Shown here: piece after piece, positions 2,091-38,221 of the stretch
Position numbering within the stretch: position 1 is the stretch's first letter
Layout: each line of letters opens with the position of its first letter
The notes under the pieces: generated by a model
Databases searched by the model: none
What the model saw: only the letters and a program-made list of their open reading frames with translations
What the model was told of the DNA's origin: nothing
Program-made: the position numbers and the translations under genes
Source: a virus
Taxonomy: Duplodnaviria; Caudoviricetes
IMG/VR virus record: IMGVR_UViG_3300048895_000218
Span: 1-43,927 of that record
Reading direction: 5' to 3' (one strand)
DNA: 43,927 nt

Positions 2091-3610
2091 CAGCAAAGCT
2101 CCTGTCCGTAGCCGAGTTGCCCCGCGCGCTTCTGAAGCGGACCGACCTCTTCATCGTCCCACTCGGATTTGAGCGGACGCATCGGAGGGATCGCCGCCTT
2201 GCCCTTGGATGCGTACGCGCAGCCGTAGACGCACGAGTCGTAGGGATGGTCGTCGCCGCCATCCATCGGCTCCTCGGTGTTCTGCGGGTTCGTCTGAATC
2301 GACGGCAAAACCTGGATGATCCATTTGCACGAAGTGAAGAAGACGATGCCCGGGGTCTTCGTTTCCTCTTCGTGATCTGTCAGGCGCTTGATGAGATGCT
2401 GTGCGTTGGTCTGCCTGCTCTTCTTGTCGGCAGGCAGCCACATCACGCCCTTTTTGCGGAACGATTCGGCCTTGTTCTCGCCCGATTCGCCGCGCTGCTC
2501 CCAGAGCTGCGTGTCAGCGGGGCCAGTGATGCGTGAGCATTTTCCGCGCTCGTCCCAGAACCCGAGCAGCTCTTCCGTCGCCTGCACCATGGCCGCTACT
2601 TCGTCGGCGGTCTTGCCTTGGAAGCGCAGCTCGTAGATCACATACAGCGTGTTCTCGTCGTCGAGCGCGAACCAGTGAATGCAGCCGGGCGCTTTGAAGC
2701 CCCAGTCCATGGAGCGGAAGATGCGCCACTCACTGGACACGCGGAACGGCCGCACGATGTGCATGCGCTCCTTCCAGTACTCGGCGAAGAAGGAGCCGAC
2801 CGTGATGTACCAGTTGCCATCGAGCAAGGCCGCGCGGATGTGCGGCTTCTGCTTGAGCAGCTGAAGCTCGTACTGCGCGACGAACGCCTTGTTGGGGTTC
2901 ATCGACAGCTTCGCGGGCATGTACACCCACTTCGTGTAGGAGTGCGTGCCGTCCGCGCGCGTGAGCTTGCGCTTGAAGATGACGTTGCCCTCTCTGCACG
3001 GATCGACGAAACGCTTCCGTACCCAGTTGGCGTCCTTGACCGAGAAGCTCTCACCCTCGGTGCGCATGAGCGGATTGCTCATCGAGCGGATGCGCAGCAT
3101 CTTCGAAAGCACGGGATCGTCCGAGCGGAGGCGCGTGCTGATTTGGTCGTACTGCTCCTCCTCGAACCCTGTGAGCTCGTCGAAGTAGATCGCCGTGAAC
3201 GCCGACGACATGTACTGCTCGTAGTCGTGCGGGTCCTTGCAGTGGCCGAACTGGTATTTCAGCCCGCTGCTGAAGGTCCAAGTCGTCTCGCTCTCACTCC
3301 AGGTCGCGCCCGGATCGACAGCGCGGAACATCCGATGGCTGAGCGCGATGGTCTGCTTCAGCATCTTGACGGTGCGACGCAGATGCAAAGCCCAGCCGGC
3401 CGACGTTCCCCAGATGAGCGGGAAGGCGTGGTTCGGATCGGTGCAGCGCTCGTGCTCGACGGCCACCTGATCCATGATGTCCATGGTCAGGCACAGCGTT
3501 TTGCCGGGGCCTGCGCTGCCTGCTCCGAGCACCTCATCGATGCCTTGCCCCACCGTGTCGTGGAAAGCCTGCTGCCACTCGGATGGCCGATAGATGATGT
3601 CGTCGCTCAT
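2090..3610 (-). CDS. terL: Terminase large subunit
   Basis: Walker A GSAGPGKT, Walker B AIYFDE, nuclease motifs SMDWG and DDHPYD; likely start MSDDII at 3610. Confidence 0.95.
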   Translation of the reverse strand: MSDDIIYRPSEWQQAFHDTVGQGIDEVLGAGSAGPGKTLCLTMDIMDQVAVEHERCTDPNHAFPLIWGTSAGWALHLRRTVKMLKQTIALSHRMFRAVDPGATWSESETTWTFSSGLKYQFGHCKDPHDYEQYMSSAFTAIYFDELTGFEEEQYDQISTRLRSDDPVLSKMLRIRSMSNPLMRTEGESFSVKDANWVRKRFVDPCREGNVIFKRKLTRADGTHSYTKWVYMPAKLSMNPNKAFVAQYELQLLKQKPHIRAALLDGNWYITVGSFFAEYWKERMHIVRPFRVSSEWRIFRSMDWGFKAPGCIHWFALDDENTLYVIYELRFQGKTADEVAAMVQATEELLGFWDERGKCSRITGPADTQLWEQRGESGENKAESFRKKGVMWLPADKKSRQTNAQHLIKRLTDHEEETKTPGIVFFTSCKWIIQVLPSIQTNPQNTEEPMDGGDDHPYDSCVYGCAYASKGKAAIPPMRPLKSEWDDEEVGPLQKRAGQLGYGQELC

Positions 3611-5624: not shown

Positions 5625-5938
5625 TGCCAGGGCGCTACCCCTGGATTGTGCTTCGCGGCGTGGGTGAAATGCGCTGCGAGCGTTGCAACGGAACCTACGT
5701 GCCGACGTTGCCGGCATCGATGAGCGTGTACGCCGCGATATGCAGGGCGTTCGTGAGTGACCACTCCAAGTGCCTCAAGTCAAAGGCTGAGCGGCTTCAG
5801 GAAGCCAAAGAGAAGCGGCAGGCAAAGATTCGGGCCTCGCTGCCGAAAGTCTCCGATTTCACCGAGGCTGAGCTAGTGGAAGCGCGCAAGGCGCTCCGAA
5901 CTAGCGAGATTAAGCGGCGGATGAGAGACCGACCGTGA
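5621..5938 (+). CDS. Hypothetical protein with CxxC, 105 aa
   Basis: Coupled to the upstream gene. Confidence 0.65.
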   Translation: MMPGRYPWIVLRGVGEMRCERCNGTYVPTLPASMSVYAAICRAFVSDHSKCLKSKAERLQEAKEKRQAKIRASLPKVSDFTEAELVEARKALRTSEIKRRMRDRP

Positions 5939-8036: not shown

Positions 8037-8321
8037 TCAGAATGGGCAGGCCGCAAGCTCACTGAGCGTGTCATTCGAGGGCTCGCCGTCCAGCATGGGA
8101 GGCGGACCGTACAGCTCCAGCGCGAGGCGTTCGGAGTGCTTGGGGTTAGCGGTGCAGCGGCCCGAGCCCTCGCGGTGCGCGTAGTGGTAGGCCGGGCACA
8201 AGCAGGTGCGGTTCCGGCGTGCATCCGTCCGACGGCAGCGCGGTCGGCCTGGGGTGCATTTGTGCTTTCCCCCCAGGCGGTCCGGGCTTGTGCATGTGCA
8301 CCCACGGATCGCGGTGCTCAT
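8037..8321 (-). CDS. Cys/His-rich hypothetical protein, 94 aa
   Basis: CLCPAYHYAHREGSGRC motif; ATGA coupling. Confidence 0.7.
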   Translation of the reverse strand: MSTAIRGCTCTSPDRLGGKHKCTPGRPRCRRTDARRNRTCLCPAYHYAHREGSGRCTANPKHSERLALELYGPPPMLDGEPSNDTLSELAACPF

Positions 8322-8539
8322 TGCGACACCCAACGGTTTGAGCATGCCGGGCGAGCGGCGGACTGCACGCGATAGGGCGGCAAGACCCGGCAGGTCTCGT
8401 CCGGAGCCTGGAAGGGGTCCGTTTCCTCGATCGAGATTTCGAGCCATTGCCGGCTAGCGGCCGCATTCGGCGTTACCACGGCGCGCGGTACGCCGTTCCA
8501 AGTAGTACGCCATACGAAAAAGCACTCTGATTTGGGCAT
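8318..8539 (-). CDS. Hypothetical protein, 73 aa
   Basis: Preceded by the early-type RBS AGAAAGAACCCC. Confidence 0.6.
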   Translation of the reverse strand: MPKSECFFVWRTTWNGVPRAVVTPNAAASRQWLEISIEETDPFQAPDETCRVLPPYRVQSAARPACSNRWVSQ

Positions 8540-8574: not shown

Positions 8575-8710
8575 GCATTAGATACTATCTCCTTTCTAAT
8601 ACGTCAAACACTTTCGTTGACTTTAGTGACGATAGGAACGCCTGGGCAATAATCGACAGGCGGACAATCAAAGTGTTTGACTGGATTAGGCGGACGCATT
8701 AGAAAGGACT
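8575..8710. promoter_or_regulatory. Back-to-back sigma70-like early promoters
   Basis: Plus TTGACT(8677)-N17-TAGAAA; minus TTGACG-N17-TATCTA; 12-bp inverted repeat 8603-8614/8670-8681; AT-rich. Confidence 0.6.
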
Positions 8711-8748
8711 CTCCAGCCAGTGAGGCTGGCCCAAAAGGAACCCCGAAC

Positions 8749-9030
8749 ATGAAACGCCCCTCCCTACTCCTCTCACTTGCCCTGCTAGCGCTTCCCAGCG
8801 TCGCAAGCGCGCGCGCCTACGAGGCGCCGGATGCCTACTGCCACGATCTAGCGGAAGCCGCGTATCAGGCCGCAGTGGCGCGCGGCGATGGCCTGCCGGA
8901 CGGCGCCTACTCGCAAACGCAATCCGATTGCGATGCTGCGGCGTACCGTTGGCATTTGCTGACCGACCCCTCTGTCAGGCTGAACGATTTGATCGCGTTC
9001 GATCAGGAGTCCGACACCTCGGAGTTTTGA
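8749..9030 (+). CDS. Exported protein, 93 aa (Sec signal peptide)
   Basis: MKRPSLLLSLALLALPSVASA; AAAGGAACCCC RBS. Confidence 0.75.
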   Translation: MKRPSLLLSLALLALPSVASARAYEAPDAYCHDLAEAAYQAAVARGDGLPDGAYSQTQSDCDAAAYRWHLLTDPSVRLNDLIAFDQESDTSEF

Positions 9031-9032
9031 GA

Positions 9033-9087
9033 TCTGCCAGTGCGCATCGCCTCCGGCCTTGCGCGCTAGCGGGACCAAAAGAACCCG
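9033..9087 (+). ncRNA. Repeated intergenic structured element, copy A
   Basis: TCTGC-C-AGTGCGCA..TGCGCGCT-A-GCGGG..CCCG; G-U pairs. Confidence 0.6.
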
Positions 9088-9111
9088 AACTAACCCGAAA
9101 GAACCCCAAAA

Positions 9112-9903
9112 ATGCAAATGCAAGTATCGACCTCCTTTGTTCAAGACCAGCGGCACGTTTCCAAATCGGCTCGTTTCGTACCAGTGCAGCCGAGCCAAAT
9201 TGCTACCGTGCTTGCCGACCATGGTCTGTTTCTGAACCATCTTCTGACCAGCAAAGCGCGAAACCCGGATCGCGCTCATCATCAGCAGTCGATTGCGCGC
9301 TACGTCGCACGCGATAGCGCCGACATCGTGCAAGCGCTAGGACGTGAGAGCACGCTCGACCTACTTGTTAAAGCGCCCCACCTAACGGGAGCCATCGAGC
9401 TTCGGTTAGGGTTCTTTCGCGGCGCATGTGCAAATCAATGGAATTCTGGACGGTTGATCGGTTCGGTCAAAATCGCCCATACGGGCAATTGCCTCGAAAT
9501 GCTCAATCAAGCGATTCCCGCGCTAGTCGGCCGGCGCAATGAGCTGATCGGCCAGATTGGCGCCATGTCCGATCGCATGCTCGAAGCTGGAGAGATTGCC
9601 GGCCTAGCGCAAGCGGTCGCAGAAATCCGACTTGGCGCGACTGACCCGGGTTTCTCGCGCGATATCCACGTGGAGGATTTGCTTCGCTTGCGCCGTCGGG
9701 AAGATGCGCCGCCGAACCTGTTTACGGTTGCCAACGTCCTACAGGAAAACGCGCTCCGGTTCGGCATGCGCTACGACTTGCGAGCGAATGAAGGTGGGCA
9801 GGTTCGGCATATGAACACGCGCCCGATCATCGAGACAACGGGAGCGGCCGTTGCAATGACTGGTTCAGTTTGGGAAGCTGCTGCTGCTTTGCTTCGCAAG
9901 TAA
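9112..9903 (+). CDS. DUF932/DUF945-like protein
   Basis: SARFVPVQ, LGFFRGACAN, IAHTG, RREDAPPNLFTVANVLQENA motifs. Confidence 0.75.
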   Translation: MQMQVSTSFVQDQRHVSKSARFVPVQPSQIATVLADHGLFLNHLLTSKARNPDRAHHQQSIARYVARDSADIVQALGRESTLDLLVKAPHLTGAIELRLGFFRGACANQWNSGRLIGSVKIAHTGNCLEMLNQAIPALVGRRNELIGQIGAMSDRMLEAGEIAGLAQAVAEIRLGATDPGFSRDIHVEDLLRLRRREDAPPNLFTVANVLQENALRFGMRYDLRANEGGQVRHMNTRPIIETTGAAVAMTGSVWEAAAALLRK

Positions 9904-9908
9904 CGATC

Positions 9909-9964
9909 CCCGCACACTGCGCGCAATCGGCTGGATTGCGCGCAGTAGCGGGCCCCGTTGCTCG
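9909..9964 (+). ncRNA. Repeated intergenic structured element, copy B
   Basis: CCCGC-AC-[13-bp perfect stem]-A-GCGGG..GCTCG. Confidence 0.7.
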
Positions 9965-9988
9965 AAACCCTAACCAAAAGGAAACCCC

Positions 9989-10345
9989 ATGGCACTACAG
10001 GTCACGCACCATTGCAGCATTTGCGACCGCGAACCGGAAGAAAGCACCGGCTTCTGTCCGATGCATCCGAACGCGAGGCTTGACTCGATTCTTTCGGAAA
10101 CGGAAGCCGAGTCGGAAGCCGAGTCACTCACCGTCGAGACCTTTGATGCGCCGGCTCACTGGGCTAGCGCTTTCGTCAACGGCGACACCTCCGGCCTGGA
10201 ATCGGCCGACTACGAAGCGTTTAAAGCGTTTTGCACCGCCAATGATGAACCGGCCGTTGTCGATTGCGGCGAGCCCTTTATCGGCCGATTTGACGGCCTA
10301 GTGACTGAGCTGTGCACCTATACCTATCATGTGGGGTCCAAATGA
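9989..10345 (+). CDS. Phage hypothetical protein, 118 aa
   Basis: PAHWASAFVNGDTSGL motif; strong RBS. Confidence 0.75.
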   Translation: MALQVTHHCSICDREPEESTGFCPMHPNARLDSILSETEAESEAESLTVETFDAPAHWASAFVNGDTSGLESADYEAFKAFCTANDEPAVVDCGEPFIGRFDGLVTELCTYTYHVGSK

Positions 10346-10503
10346 GCGGCTATCAGCCTTGCGCGTGTCGCGATTGCTTTGAAATTGCGATCGGCGATGA
10401 CAGCGACGAAACGCCGGCCATGTGCCACGCCTGCGAGGCTGCCGGCTGCGAGCTTGAAAGCGAATGCTGCTGCGAGCCTGAGCTAGAGGAGTTCGACGAA
10501 TGA
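10342..10503 (+). CDS. Cys-rich acidic protein, 53 aa
   Basis: ATGA coupling on both sides. Confidence 0.65.
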   Translation: MSGYQPCACRDCFEIAIGDDSDETPAMCHACEAAGCELESECCCEPELEEFDE

Positions 10504-10802
10504 AACGCCGCGCACAGGTTCGAGCCTTTCTTGATGCATTGCGGGCCGGTCCTTACACCTCGATCGGCTGCTATCCGATCTTTTTCCTTATGGCCGATGG
10601 GGGCACGCTGTCACACGCAAGCGCGCGCGAGAACGTCTGGCAGATCGCCCGCGCTACGCGCGACGCTGCCCAAGGCTATCGCACGGGATGGGAATTCGAA
10701 GCCTCGGACATCAACTGGGAAGATCCAGACATGATCTGCGATCACTCTGGCGAGCGCATTGAGTCGGCCTATGCCGAGCCAGAGGAGCCCTCCGACGACT
10801 AG
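10500..10802 (+). CDS. Phage hypothetical protein, 100 aa
   Basis: GCYPIFFLMADGGTL...DINWEDPDMICDHSGERIESAY. Confidence 0.75.
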   Translation: MKRRAQVRAFLDALRAGPYTSIGCYPIFFLMADGGTLSHASARENVWQIARATRDAAQGYRTGWEFEASDINWEDPDMICDHSGERIESAYAEPEEPSDD

Positions 10803-10811
10803 CGAAACCTC

Positions 10812-10866
10812 CCCGCACACTGCACAGCGTTCCGACCCTGTGCAGTAGCGGGCAGCGTTTCGCCCG
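10812..10866 (+). ncRNA. Repeated intergenic structured element, copy C
   Basis: CCCGC-AC-ACTGCACAG..CTGTGCAGT-A-GCGGG..GCCCG. Confidence 0.7.
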
Positions 10867-10887
10867 ACCCTAAAAAGGAAAACCCAA

Positions 10888-11409
10888 GTGTCTGTTATTC
10901 GTCCCCTTGTAGGCCACACCTCTCCAGAAACCGCTTTCTTAATTGCCGACTATCCCTATGGGCGCAAGCTTCGCTGTCAGCGTCGAGTGTGGATCGAACA
11001 TTCGCCGAGCCATGGTTTCCGGTTTTGCGCGCAAACCACGAACCCCAAAAACGGCCGCTGGAACAAGCCGCACAAAAGCACGTACTCCGAGATCGCTATG
11101 GCCCTCTATCTTGATGAGCAAGGCCACGTTCAGAGCATGGCCATCACTCCCACATCAAGCGAAGCGCATGCCCTGACCTTTGCGCGTGCGTTCGGTCGCG
11201 AAGCAGAGGGCGCCGGCATCTTCCGAGTATTCGCAATCAAGCGAGCGCGCTACCTTCAGCAGCTTGCGAGCGGCGAAGCTTACTTTACGATCAACGGCAA
11301 GCGCGACGAGACCTCACCGGCTGAGGCTGCGCGCTGTCTGGAAGAGTCGAAGCAGTGGCTTGAGGTCGCGGAGATTCTAAACCCGGAACGCCTGGGGCAA
11401 TCCGAATGA
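10888..11409 (+). CDS. Phage hypothetical protein, 173 aa
   Basis: DYPYGRKLRC...QTTNPKNGRWNKPHKSTY; strong RBS. Confidence 0.75.
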   Translation: MSVIRPLVGHTSPETAFLIADYPYGRKLRCQRRVWIEHSPSHGFRFCAQTTNPKNGRWNKPHKSTYSEIAMALYLDEQGHVQSMAITPTSSEAHALTFARAFGREAEGAGIFRVFAIKRARYLQQLASGEAYFTINGKRDETSPAEAARCLEESKQWLEVAEILNPERLGQSE

Positions 11410-11615
11410 GCGCCTTCTATCCGGTCCCCAAAGCCCACTACACGATCATCATGGGGCGCCAGCGCTGGACGTTCACCAGCAAGCGCGCAGCCCTAGCGCA
11501 TGCTCGCCAGCTAGGCGGCAAGCGCATTCGGCGCGCCAAAGCCACGCCGCCCCAACTGACCTACTATGCGCTCCCAGACGGCGCGCAGCTCTGCCTCCGC
11601 AAGGACGAACCCTAA
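11406..11615 (+). CDS. Hypothetical protein, 69 aa
   Basis: Coupled. Confidence 0.65.
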   Translation: MSAFYPVPKAHYTIIMGRQRWTFTSKRAALAHARQLGGKRIRRAKATPPQLTYYALPDGAQLCLRKDEP

Positions 11616-11920
11616 TGGCCATGACCCCGCAAGCATTTCTTGCCGCGCATGCGAGCAACCCAGAACGCTGCGATCCAGCTTGTCCCGGATGGTTCATAAA
11701 CTCTGAATCCGGACTAACCAACCGCTGCGATGAATGCTGGTCGCATTACCCGGAGGACGATCAGCCATGCGACGGCGAAGCCGCTGCGGCCCGCGTCGAG
11801 CCTAACACCATCGTTCCGCGCATGCTCTTGACCTCGGGCGAACCCGTTTCGATCGGCATGCTCCAGGAAGCGCTAGCAAAGCTCGGTCTCGCGATCCTGC
11901 CAGTGGAGGAGCTGCCCTAG
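11615..11920 (+). CDS. Hypothetical Cys-containing protein, 101 aa
   Basis: TAATG coupling. Confidence 0.65.
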   Translation: MAMTPQAFLAAHASNPERCDPACPGWFINSESGLTNRCDECWSHYPEDDQPCDGEAAAARVEPNTIVPRMLLTSGEPVSIGMLQEALAKLGLAILPVEELP

Positions 11921-11922
11921 CT

Positions 11923-11975
11923 TCCACACACCGCGCAACGCTTCGGCCTTGCGCGGTAGTGGGCGCTAGAAGCCC
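11923..11975 (+). ncRNA. Repeated intergenic structured element, copy D
   Basis: TCCAC-AC-ACCGCGCAA..cTTCGg..TTGCGCGGT-A-GTGGG..GCCC; compensatory changes. Confidence 0.7.
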
Positions 11976-11991
11976 TCAACAAAGGAACCCC

Positions 11992-12213
11992 ATGACCGCT
12001 CCCACGAAGACCCCGAAAGCGCCGCAAGCGCACAGCATCGCCGACCAATGGCACGAAGTGCAGGAAGCCCAGAAGAAACGCGATCGCCTGCTCGCCGAGC
12101 TGAACACCGCGATCGCCCGCTACGGCTCAGCCGAGACTGAGCTCGGCCTGGCCACCGACCGCTTCGATCGGCTGATGGCACGCGAGCCTGCGCCGGCAGT
12201 GCTGAAGCCGTGA
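11992..12213 (+). CDS. Coiled-coil hypothetical protein, 73 aa
   Basis: AAAGGAACCCC RBS before ATG 11992. Confidence 0.7.
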   Translation: MTAPTKTPKAPQAHSIADQWHEVQEAQKKRDRLLAELNTAIARYGSAETELGLATDRFDRLMAREPAPAVLKP

Positions 12214-12395
12214 CCAAAACCGACTACGAGAACATCGGGAAGCATTTGATCGACGAGTACAAACGCGCGGTCTATTCGATGGTTGAGACGTGTTTCTCGC
12301 AACATATGGCCGAGGAGATGATCGACGCCTATTCGAACGGCGTGCGCGACGGAATGAAAGCGCTACTCACAGCAATCACGCCGTCAAAAGACTAA
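12210..12395 (+). CDS. Hypothetical protein, 61 aa
   Basis: GTGA coupling. Confidence 0.65.
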   Translation: MTKTDYENIGKHLIDEYKRAVYSMVETCFSQHMAEEMIDAYSNGVRDGMKALLTAITPSKD

Positions 12396-12400
12396 GGCTA

Positions 12401-12458
12401 TCCGCCACTGCCCGCGCACCTTGAGCGGTCGCGGGCAGTAGCGGGCACCGTTCGCCCG
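12401..12458 (+). ncRNA. Repeated intergenic structured element, copy E
   Basis: TCCGC-C-ACTGCCCGCG..CGCGGGCAGT-A-GCGGG..GCCCG. Confidence 0.7.
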
Positions 12459-12477
12459 ACCCAGAAGGAAAACCCAA

Positions 12478-12732
12478 ATGAAACAAGCCCTAATTGCCAT
12501 CGCTCTGATCTGCCTGCCGACCCTTGCCAACGCTGCCGACCCGGCGAAACCCGCCAAGACGTTCGCGTGTACGAACTACAACGTCGCCACGACTACCGAC
12601 GGCGCGACCATCGGCATTTGTGGCGCGACCAAGCCAGGCGGCAAGGTCACGTTCCTGCGCAGCTTCCAAATCGTGAAGCTCATCGACCCCACGACCGACA
12701 CCGAAACCACGCTGATGGTTGGCTTTCAGTGA
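12478..12732 (+). CDS. Exported protein, 84 aa (signal peptide)
   Basis: MKQALIAIALICLPTLANA; two Cys in the mature part. Confidence 0.75.
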   Translation: MKQALIAIALICLPTLANAADPAKPAKTFACTNYNVATTTDGATIGICGATKPGGKVTFLRSFQIVKLIDPTTDTETTLMVGFQ

Positions 12733-12917
12733 GCATCACAAAGCGCGCGGCCACCATTGTGGACCAGGCGGGACAGGCCGGCGGGATAGACGAAGTTCAG
12801 CGAATAGCTGAGCTTGGTTGGCCAGACAGCAGCGAGCTCACCAACGACTCGCCCGAGCTGCGAGCTGCCATCAAGGCCGCCGCACGAGAGTTCTTGGATA
12901 CGCTCTCCAAGAATTGA
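12729..12917 (+). CDS. Hypothetical protein, 62 aa
   Basis: GTGA coupling. Confidence 0.6.
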   Translation: MSITKRAATIVDQAGQAGGIDEVQRIAELGWPDSSELTNDSPELRAAIKAAAREFLDTLSKN

Positions 12918-12932
12918 AGCCACCAAATAGGA

Positions 12933-12964
12933 CGCGCCCCGTGGCCTTACAGCGACGGGGCGCG
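12933..12964 (+). terminator. GC-rich hairpin ending the early operon
   Basis: CGCGCCCCGT / ACGGGGCGCG; no U-tract. Confidence 0.4.
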
Positions 12965-13087
12965 GAGACAGGGGGGGGGACACTGTCTGCCCGCAGTTCT
13001 ACAGCAAAACGAGGGGCCCGGAACTATTGCAGATCGCCCCATGTGCGAAATCGCCCAAAGTGAGACGAGGCAAACTTGCATTAGCTG

Positions 13088-15267: not shown

Positions 15268-15491
15268 ATGGCGGGCCCTACGACGGGGAGCTCCACGCCA
15301 CACTGTCCACCACGAACGCGACCTTCGTGTTGCTCCTGGTGTACGGTGGGAACAGGGGCAGCGGGTTTAGCTTGGGAGTCGATGAGAACGCAGTCAGCCC
15401 GAAGATGGTGATGACCATGGTGCCGGCTATGCTGCGCGCGATTGCCGACGGCATCGAGGCAGAGGGCCTACCGAGCGAGCAGGTGAGCTAA
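15264..15491 (+). CDS. Phage hypothetical protein, 75 aa
   Basis: VLLLVYGGNRGSGFS; ATGA coupling. Confidence 0.7.
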   Translation: MNGGPYDGELHATLSTTNATFVLLLVYGGNRGSGFSLGVDENAVSPKMVMTMVPAMLRAIADGIEAEGLPSEQVS

Positions 15492-36557: not shown

Positions 36558-37379
36558 TCAGCTCCACTGAACCCGGCTTCCGCCGGTCGCCGTTTGGATG
36601 TTCACGCGCCCGGTAGCCCCGACAGGCAGCGCCATGTCGGCGCCCAGCAGCAAGCTCAGACTTTCGATGTTGAGATTGGTGACCGTCGCGAGCGTGAAGT
36701 CGATCGCCGAGTAGAGAGAGAACCCGACCGTCCCTGCCGACACCACGGTGTCGATCATGGTGAAGCTTGCGACCGTCCCGCCGCCTTGAATGGCGACGTA
36801 CGGCTGCGCGGTGGTGAGGGTCGCGGTAGAGATAAACGTCGAGCTCTCCACGCGGCAGCGAGCGCCGGTAATGCTCAGCCCGGGACCGAGGTCGTTCGGG
36901 CCTTGCTCGAAGTAGCAGCCACGCACCAGCATTTCGGCGACGTTGTTATTGGGGCCGATTTTCGAGGATGCGTTCGCCTGGACACTTTCGGGAAAGTAGA
37001 GGTTTCGGAACTCGACGCCATCCGCGGTGGGGTTGAACATCGTTCCGTTAAAGTTGGGTTTAAACGACACCGACGGCTTGCCGTTCGCGACCCCTTCGCC
37101 GAGGAGCGTGAGGCGCTTTGAAATGTTGTGCACGCCCGTGATCGTCTGCGTGTGCCCCGGAAGGAACACCACGATGTCGCCGGCCAAGGCATTGCTGAGC
37201 GCCTGCGAGAGCGTGGCGAGCGGCTTTTCTCGGTTCAGCCCGGCCGGGCTAATGGCATCGGTGCCAGTGAGTGAGCTCACGTACCAAACGTTGCCGCTCG
37301 TGTAGAGCGGCAAGCAGGTGTCGAGGAAGTCCCCAGGCGGGTCGCCTCCGACGCCGTTCGGGTAATATTGGATGCTCAT
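36558..37379 (-). CDS. Beta-helix virion protein, paralog B
   Basis: WYVSSLTG.D...KPLATL.QA...A.AGDIVVFLPGH. Confidence 0.7.
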   Translation of the reverse strand: MSIQYYPNGVGGDPPGDFLDTCLPLYTSGNVWYVSSLTGTDAISPAGLNREKPLATLSQALSNALAGDIVVFLPGHTQTITGVHNISKRLTLLGEGVANGKPSVSFKPNFNGTMFNPTADGVEFRNLYFPESVQANASSKIGPNNNVAEMLVRGCYFEQGPNDLGPGLSITGARCRVESSTFISTATLTTAQPYVAIQGGGTVASFTMIDTVVSAGTVGFSLYSAIDFTLATVTNLNIESLSLLLGADMALPVGATGRVNIQTATGGSRVQWS

Positions 37380-38221
37380 GCCCAGACCACCCGTGAGCCG
37401 CCAGTTGCCAGCTGCACATTGGCGCGGCCGGTGGCCACGCCGAAATTAGCGTCCGCTCCGTGTAGCAGGCTGAGCCCTTCCACACGCAAGCGCGAAACTG
37501 ATGCGGCTCCGCTGAGGTCGATGGCCGAGAGAGAGGAGATGCCCCCGGAGAAGCCTACACTTCCTGCGTCCACCACGCAGTCGGTGATCTCCAAGCCGAC
37601 CAGCGCCGCGCCGGGACTCACCTCGATCACCGACTTCGGCTGTGCGCTGGTCAGCGTCCCCGTGGAGACGAAAGTGGTGCGTCGAAATCGCGCCCTGTTG
37701 GCCGAAATGACGATAGCCCGCTCGTTGTCGTTCGCGCCGCATTCGAAGTAGCAGCCGGAAAACATCACATCATCAGCACTGACGATGATCCTCGTACTGG
37801 TGGCCAGCACCGCACGTTGCGGAAAGTAGATATTTCGGAACTCACAGCCGACGGCGCCCGCCTGAATACTGAAGAGCGATTGGGCGGCGGGCGAAGAGAA
37901 TTGCACAGCGGGCTTACCGGATGCGTCCGTGCCTTCCCCAACGAACGTGAGGTCCGCCTTGTTGATGTTCAGGTTTGGGGACAACTGCACATGTCCTGGC
38001 AGGAAGACGATAATGTCGCCCGCCGCCGCATTGCTGTACGCCTGCGTGACCGTAGCGAGCGGCTTCTCGCGATTCTGTCCCGCCGGGCTGGCTGCGTTGG
38101 TGCCGATGAGCGAGCTCACGTACCAGACGTTGCCAGAGGTGTAGAGCGGGCGCGCGAGGCCGAGCGGATCGCCGCTCGTGGACAAACCGCCGATGCCGTT
38201 CGGGTAGGTCTGAATGCTCAT
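37376..38221 (-). CDS. Beta-helix virion protein, paralog A
   Basis: Colinear with paralog B from MSIQ.YPNG to ATGGSRV.W. Confidence 0.7.
   Translation of the reverse strand: MSIQTYPNGIGGLSTSGDPLGLARPLYTSGNVWYVSSLIGTNAASPAGQNREKPLATVTQAYSNAAAGDIIVFLPGHVQLSPNLNINKADLTFVGEGTDASGKPAVQFSSPAAQSLFSIQAGAVGCEFRNIYFPQRAVLATSTRIIVSADDVMFSGCYFECGANDNERAIVISANRARFRRTTFVSTGTLTSAQPKSVIEVSPGAALVGLEITDCVVDAGSVGFSGGISSLSAIDLSGAASVSRLRVEGLSLLHGADANFGVATGRANVQLATGGSRVVWA

Follow-up and report, generated by a model that had tools for sequence, protein, structure and literature searches.

Repeated punctuation of an early operon by ribonuclease III (RNase III) is well worked out in the T7 group of phages, and the early sites of T7 and T3 (R0.3, R0.5, R1, R1.1 and R1.3) are five intercistronic hairpins, each with a conserved core at an internal loop and a variable top. 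Here we describe a hairpin element of the same layout, which stands five times in a probable early operon of the virus record IMGVR_UViG_3300048895_000218, a complete 43.9-kb record with direct terminal repeats at its ends (all 43,927 nucleotides (nt) of it were analysed and are called the window), and which was found in 28 copies altogether on nine contigs. On balance, host RNase III would nick the 3' strand of each hairpin, after which the downstream message would refold into a hairpin at its 5' end. Such T7-like processing with 5'-hairpin refolding, which was the lead idea of an initial annotation of this DNA, is the best-supported reading of the predictions and comparisons presented below, and somewhat favored by us. 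The element is not a new kind of system; it rather seems to work like the T7 early sites with no shared sequence, and is not filed here as a proven RNase III site.

The helix of the T7 early sites reaches -12 to -14 above the cut, compared to -13 to -16 by the same measure here, and the annotated RNase III sites of T3 are stem-loops of 40-54 nt, located 20-37 nt before the next start, with a common core and a variable top, a layout repeated in our element. However, there is no likeness in sequence to T7, and a covariance model of the element gave no match on the T7 region at E-values up to 1. The internal loop is mostly 2x1 and thereby smaller than that of T7, and the stems are G-C-rich. The T7 products lack a conserved 5' hairpin (-0.3 to -5.8 kcal/mol), whereas a product hairpin is encoded in 28/28 copies here, in a temperate phage for which cleavage is predicted only. 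A long hairpin cut by RNase III into a shorter 5'-terminal hairpin, giving a more stable message, is described for the cspA 5' untranslated region in Staphylococcus aureus (PMC3386247), and the same outcome is predicted here; cspA, as portrayed in that work, is a single chromosomal leader in which the cut frees the ribosome site, while the present element is a repeated intercistronic module with unchanged predicted access. The T4-type PeSL cassettes (PMC2839356) are also repeated intergenic units running from stop to start, with a stem-loop and a ribosome site, at points of gene swapping, but according to that account they hold a sigma70 promoter, have a stem-loop that terminates and give rise to mini-circles, whereas the elements here carry neither a promoter-like nor a terminator-like site. 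The put element of HK022, a double hairpin of ~65 nt (PMC8632103), is similar in size and in the possible double hairpin, which is a minor fold here; unlike put, our element recurs between genes, where no terminator to be read through is predicted.

If the reading is true, the logic of T7 is shared by an unrelated temperate soil phage with a sequence of its own, which has an extra step not conserved in the T7 sites, the creation of a paired 5' end by the cut itself. The set of 28 variants found in nature would then predict, base by base, the rules by which an RNase III of an unstudied host cleaves, and the element could serve as a short part for building polycistronic messages.

Structure and conservation of the element

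In the window the element is present at all five gapped junctions of the operon (gaps of 71-85 nt) and at none of the six junctions where stop and start overlap. The initial annotation had placed a copy at every spaced junction, with cores starting at 9033, 9909, 10812, 11923 and 12401, and was correct in both respects. The copies are the following, with putative cut positions.

9025..9087, + strand: copy 1, upstream of the DUF932 gene; long hairpin 9025-9080, core 9033-9073; predicted cut 9069/9070; predicted product hairpin 9070-9087
9900..9964, + strand: copy 2; long hairpin 9900-9961, core 9909-9952; predicted cut 9948/9949; predicted product hairpin 9949-9964
10802..10866, + strand: copy 3; long hairpin 10802-10864, core 10812-10852; predicted cut 10848/10849; predicted product hairpin 10849-10866
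11917..11975, + strand: copy 4; long hairpin 11917-11969, core 11923-11963, with a cUUCGg loop; predicted cut 11959/11960; predicted product hairpin 11961-11975
12401..12458, + strand: copy 5; core 12401-12445, weak lower stem; predicted cut 12441/12442; predicted product hairpin 12442-12458

Each copy forms a single long hairpin that spans about two helical turns; below an upper helix come a small internal loop, usually with AC opposite A, then a G-C-rich stem of five pairs, a mismatch and a further lower stem. The five-pair basal stem had been given as CCCGC/GCGGG; the stem is there, but only two of the five copies read CCCGC and the rest carry U-G or A-U variants. The lower stem, missing from that description, adds ~5-9 pairs under the basal stem; it is evident in copies 1-4 but weak in copy 5. 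Folding z-scores of copies 1-5 are -3.4, -4.1, -6.9, -2.9 and -3.7 against 300 dinucleotide shuffles. A descriptor scan of the entire window on both strands returned the five copies and one weak match at 15324, and the covariance model, the training set of which included the window copies, found five full-scoring copies in the window genome and four in a complete relative (G004), all within this operon. Intrinsic terminators were rejected as an explanation, as a scan showed no U-tract at the elements; terminator-like sites numbered four compared to 5.9 by chance, none of them at these junctions. A scan for promoter-like sites found none inside any of the five elements.

Besides this phage (five copies), the element is carried by seven relatives and one distant phage-like fragment. 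The relatives are designated A (L016, three copies), B (L002, one), C (L008, four), D (L015, four) and E (L010, four), all from IMG/VR, and F (L038, three) and G (L040, one), which are metagenome contigs. The fragment P (L046, three copies) is a 2-kb phage-like contig binned in a Planctomycetota genome, and its genes and ribosome sites are unlike those of the others. Across 27 aligned copies, 90.7% of the cells are paired, and nine of 16 pairs show changes on both sides, a count reached by 42 of 500 shuffles. The covariation score is 0.437 versus 0.176 in shuffles, with 0/500 reaching 0.437, while slid controls gave 0.04-0.14; these values come from an alignment in which two rows of P are misaligned on the 5' side. 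The compensatory pairing proposed from the window alone is thus upheld. The 28th copy, which lies outside the model, scored 56 bits, and an otherwise invariant C-G pair is U-A there. Numbering positions from the bond between CAGUAG and CGGG (the predicted cut), the helix extends to between -13 and -16 in 28/28 copies, even though the upper sequence varies freely.

The apical loops of UNCG type, nine on the plus strand and none on the minus strand, together with gene direction point to the messenger (plus) strand RNA as the acting form. Of the initial argument for plus-strand RNA, the loop part stands, whereas the G-U pairs are a weak guide, as it is the minus strand that has the more stable fold in 25 of the 28 copies.

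Predicted cleavage by RNase III

In the proposed mechanism, a single transcript would run from a promoter near 8700 through 12 genes; that the operon is read as one transcript is itself presumed. In each element the long hairpin would fold first, because its 3' arm is transcribed before the competing partner. RNase III would then recognize its proximal box in the four pairs above the internal loop and cut the 3' strand two bases below these pairs, between CAGUAG and CGGG, a second cut being hindered by the G-C-rich basal stem and the loop. The upstream message would retain a 3' hairpin and the downstream message would begin with a paired 5' end, so that every gene block would end up as a message of its own, protected at either end. 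A domain search found no RNase III encoded in either of the two complete phage genomes, and the enzyme would therefore be that of the host.

The elements share the general features of T7-type sites, as each is a hairpin between genes shortly before a ribosome site, with the internal loop at the predicted target. RNase III needs at least ~11 pairs of helix above the cut (PMC3867540), and the helix exceeds this length in 28/28 copies. The proximal box is given as G-C, A-U/U-A, A-U and A-U/U-A in PMC1540722, in which G-C at box position 2 blocks binding and at position 4 blocks catalysis. In our copies position -6 is G-C in 28/28, position -5 is U-A in 19/28 (G-C-type in eight and U-G in one) and position -4 is C-G in 21/28 and A-U in 0/28. 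Position -3 is A-U in 17/28 and mismatched in 11/28, and is never G-C or C-G, that is, never the catalytic antideterminant; the T7 site R1.1 is reported to have a U-C pair at the matching place (PMC1540722). Judged from the pair letters, position -2 is mismatched or bulged in 22/28. At the mirror position beneath the loop (+3) all 28 copies have C-G, and a pair of this type blocks binding in Escherichia coli (PMC3867540, PMC6212723), so that a second cut would be disfavored, which fits a single cut. Indeed, loops at the target site are reported to allow single cuts that leave stabilizing 3' hairpins (PMC3867540). From the predicted cut to the start codon there are 29-44 nt (24/28 copies measured).

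Cleavage registers were scored with T7 sites as controls, and for four of these (R0.3, R0.5, R1 and R1.3) the cut positions are those that we take to be established. The fifth, R1.1, is cut at 5887 (PMC8708148). The matrix consisted of in vivo E. coli pair counts (PMC6212723, Table S4), preferences which may not be those of the host enzyme, and on the T7 controls it peaked at the cut in 2/5 and one base off in 3/5. Applied to the element, it gave the best mean loop-side score at the favored register, 1.90, in a near tie with 1.82 five bases higher. This near tie is one of several points that weigh against the RNase III reading as set out here. The best register per copy is -5 in 16, +1 in seven, 0 in four and -3 in one (n=28), and the full matrix score prefers register -5 in 18/28; register -5 would also account for the invariance of both the -7 and the -6 pair. 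In addition, the eight G-C-type pairs at -5 are inhibitory in E. coli, -4 is mostly C-G where A-U is optimal, and the distal-box U-G of E. coli at -11 occurs in only 1/27 copies, an E. coli optimum that may not be the host's; the distal box is not conserved across species (PMC3867540). Finally, the 28 copies are of common descent and do not count as independent.

The matrix is thus compatible with an RNase III substrate and does not fix the cut site. The favored register is preferred because the higher one leaves fewer than 11 pairs on the loop side, because the higher one puts the often-mismatched -3 pair where 95% of E. coli targets have a pair (PMC6212723), and because the product hairpin starts at the favored cut. 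A study in Bacillus subtilis (10.1101/2023.03.12.532304) reports similar RNase III preferences in this distant species, and carrying the E. coli rules over is therefore reasonable, though not safe.

The predicted product hairpin

When the product is folded with its 5' end at +1, the first paired base is +1 in 17/28 and +2 in 11/28 copies. A four-pair stem from +2 is present in 27/28 copies compared to a shuffle mean of 15%, and a looser test of the stem gives 27/28 versus 44% in shuffles. The stem has 3-6 pairs and the loop 4-13 nt. Changes within the stem comprise one compensatory change (G-C to A-U at +4, in the copy of F at 3246) and four G-U variants. That only one change is truly compensatory, and that 82 of the 137 bases of the 3' arm pair in the long fold too, counts against the refolding step. 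The predicted folds thus offer good support for a conserved product hairpin, short of decisive since the copies are related and those 3'-arm bases have a second partner.

A wider interpretation may be offered tentatively, namely that the element is a cut-and-cap module in which one RNase III nick flips a shared strand into a hairpin hiding the new 5' monophosphate, thereby splitting the message into separately stabilized units, and that this compact module has passed from one distant phage lineage to another while also providing a joint for the exchange of gene blocks.

One alternative explanation is that the hairpins punctuate the message without RNase III, as exonuclease barriers or translation insulators, and that ends arise by another nuclease or by partial decay. 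Both the location of the element and its two folds would fit this equally well, and the match to the E. coli matrix is modest and ambiguous. However, a plain barrier requires stability rather than a fixed-length helix with a conserved internal loop and position-specific pairs, and the product hairpin begins exactly at the cut set by the proximal-box rule, which makes such punctuation unlikely in our view.

Gene exchange at the elements

The elements mark gene exchange points. The gene set between the first and the last operon genes differs in every relative; one near-identical hairpin has the same gene upstream and different genes downstream in A and F versus G, and another has the same gene downstream and four different genes upstream (window, A, C and F). 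Swaps also occur at overlapping junctions lacking a hairpin, as in D and E, where the gene resembling that at 10888 joins the one resembling that at 11992 directly. Exact bases common to the copies within the window genome amount to 7-14 only. The contigs of four DNA runs show no joints between copies, a result that speaks neither for nor against recombination between them, contigs being prone to drop rare variants. Exchange is probably a side effect of the elements being the only conserved non-coding DNA in a variable operon.

That the elements are mainly recombination handles of the PeSL kind, at which a RecT-type protein swaps gene blocks, had also been considered initially. The changing neighbors bear out part of this idea, and the phage encodes a RecT (PF03837). 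Nevertheless, it is pairing rather than sequence that is under selection, the shared bases are few, swaps take place at hairpin-less junctions as well, and the promoter that defines PeSLs in PMC2839356 has no counterpart in the five elements; a role mainly as handles is accordingly improbable.

In L046 the copies at 850-923 and 1468-1540 have near-identical flanks from stop codon to ribosome site and a different internal loop, which suggests recent copying between junctions.

Alternative folds of the intact RNA

The downstream alternative pairing noted initially is present in five of five window copies. In the intact RNA, however, the long hairpin is predicted to be favored over the alternative in 26/28 copies, by a mean of 4.1 kcal/mol and with a median probability of 0.99. 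Copy 5 is the only window copy in which the alternative fold wins (probability 0.85). A double hairpin made up of the upper stem together with the downstream stem is also possible, and that fold wins or ties in 3/28. Access to the ribosome site is predicted to differ hardly at all between precursor and product in the five window copies, and because of this the element, as modeled, is not an on-off translation switch. The two-state switch in intact RNA that had been envisaged thus finds no backing in these folds.

The double hairpin, resembling that of put, could instead act in the uncut nascent RNA, either as an antiterminator of the HK022 type, which had been another early suggestion, or as a switch to which a protein of the phage or of the host binds. 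This would require that the long fold, which is so widely favored and predicted to be able to form first, give way; moreover, it would do little to ribosome-site access, and the junctions hold no terminator-like site to act upon. A put-like antiterminator is disfavored on these grounds, and the chance that the two-hairpin fold acts in either way appears slight.

REP elements have GTAG at the foot of their palindromes, and attC sites have core sites RYYYAAC and GTTRRRY flanking a hairpin. An action of our elements as single-stranded DNA hairpins of either kind, for which the greater stability of the minus strand and the GTAG directly before the downstream hairpin in 18/28 copies (with a stem of just 3-6 pairs) might speak, or as a small self-cleaving RNA, is highly improbable, as both attC core sites are found in 0/28, the integrase scores 35 bits against an integron-integrase (TIGR02249) cut-off of 265, Y1 transposase (PF01797) is missing from 2/2 complete genomes, the many dispersed chromosomal copies of a REP-like element are not seen (an exact-core scan of GTDB genomes gave five matches, of which one, the phage-like L046, is real), the UNCG-type loops favor the plus strand, and there are few conserved unpaired bases and no Rfam ribozyme match. 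A mimic of CRISPR repeats was also rejected, there being no Rfam CRISPR match, no Cas6e-family gene and an insert of 27-33 nt at the place of the loop; the basal stem presumably resembles that of type I-E CRISPR repeats.

Searches for further copies

The relatives were found by pattern and protein scans. L039 duplicates C and was left out of the count, and three pattern matches inside L046 genes (630, 1130 and 1401) were excluded before the total of 28 was reached. Ten of 17 pattern-matched loci (L018-L025, L028 and L031) were dropped, having neither the hairpin nor genes of this kind, as was L048, a chance match. A loose-pattern scan covering 54/64 parts gave at least 120 loci; 117 were scored with the model, leaving out three known relatives, and none was accepted, the best reaching 26 bits versus 28-75 for accepted copies. 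A single similar hairpin with 22-25 bits is found on four other viral contigs (L119, L106, L128 and L162, ~1499-1574, - strand), and as these were selected by the pattern their score is weak evidence. When 61 genomes belonging to the class of G001 were searched with the model, with only 80 candidates scored per genome, L046 and one match within a coding region were obtained, and a protein-alignment scan returned only the five known viral contigs.

Rfam 15 gave no match in the window at the gathering threshold (best E-value 1.5 in the region), in agreement with the earlier statement that this is not a named RNA family, and no description of the element was found in the literature searched. The element may overlap the catalogue of candidate RNAs in PMC10690425, compared here through its tables alone; the core motif is absent from these tables, and DUF932 is listed seven times in the table of genes downstream of candidate RNAs.

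The operon and the phage

The genome encodes a tyrosine integrase, RecT, a replication initiator, a terminase and tail proteins, and is therefore most likely that of a temperate tailed phage, the record representing an uncultured soil phage. A DNA comparison of 8600-13000 with cultured phages gave no match; the closest terminase matches have at most ~32% identity, and matches to the DUF932 protein 26-28%. The rightward operon comprises 12 genes (8749-12917), of which only DUF932 obtained a Pfam name. Its small variable genes and its position beside a divergent promoter region suggest that it is early. Its features are as follows.

8677..8705, + strand: candidate sigma70-type promoter of the operon (TTGACT, 17 nt, TAGAAA), assigned by a loose pattern
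8749..9030, + strand: operon gene 1, in 6/6 relatives covering that region, with no assigned function
9112..9903, + strand: DUF932 gene (PF06067, E-value 2.9e-9), present in relatives C, D and E and absent from A and F
9989..10802, + strand: block of three small overlapping genes (9989-10345, 10342-10503 and 10500-10802)
10888..11920, + strand: block of three overlapping genes (10888-11409, 11406-11615 and 11615-11920) with no family match
11992..12395, + strand: block of two overlapping genes (11992-12213 and 12210-12395) with no family match
12478..12917, + strand: final block of two overlapping genes (12478-12732 and 12729-12917) with no family match

The candidate promoter is seen in relatives D and E too, and scores too low to be listed by the consensus scan. 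The divergent promoter region holds a perfect 11-base inverted repeat (8604-8614 and 8670-8680), its second arm overlapping with the candidate -35 box; relatives B, D and E have similar arms, and the repeat is likely to represent operator sites. Beside this region, 8037-8447 (- strand) encodes a small Cys- and His-rich protein with 73-84% identity in four relatives, and with a weak match only, to a PHROG family lacking an assigned function. At the operon end (12931-12990), a G-C hairpin is followed by a G run and a second small hairpin, an arrangement kept in the relatives L001 and L010; there is no U-tract on the plus strand, and these hairpins could be an unusual terminator or a further processing signal. 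In the structural region, two adjacent open reading frames at 36558-38221 (- strand) have direct repeats in common, ~830-840 bases apart, which points to a tandem gene duplication.

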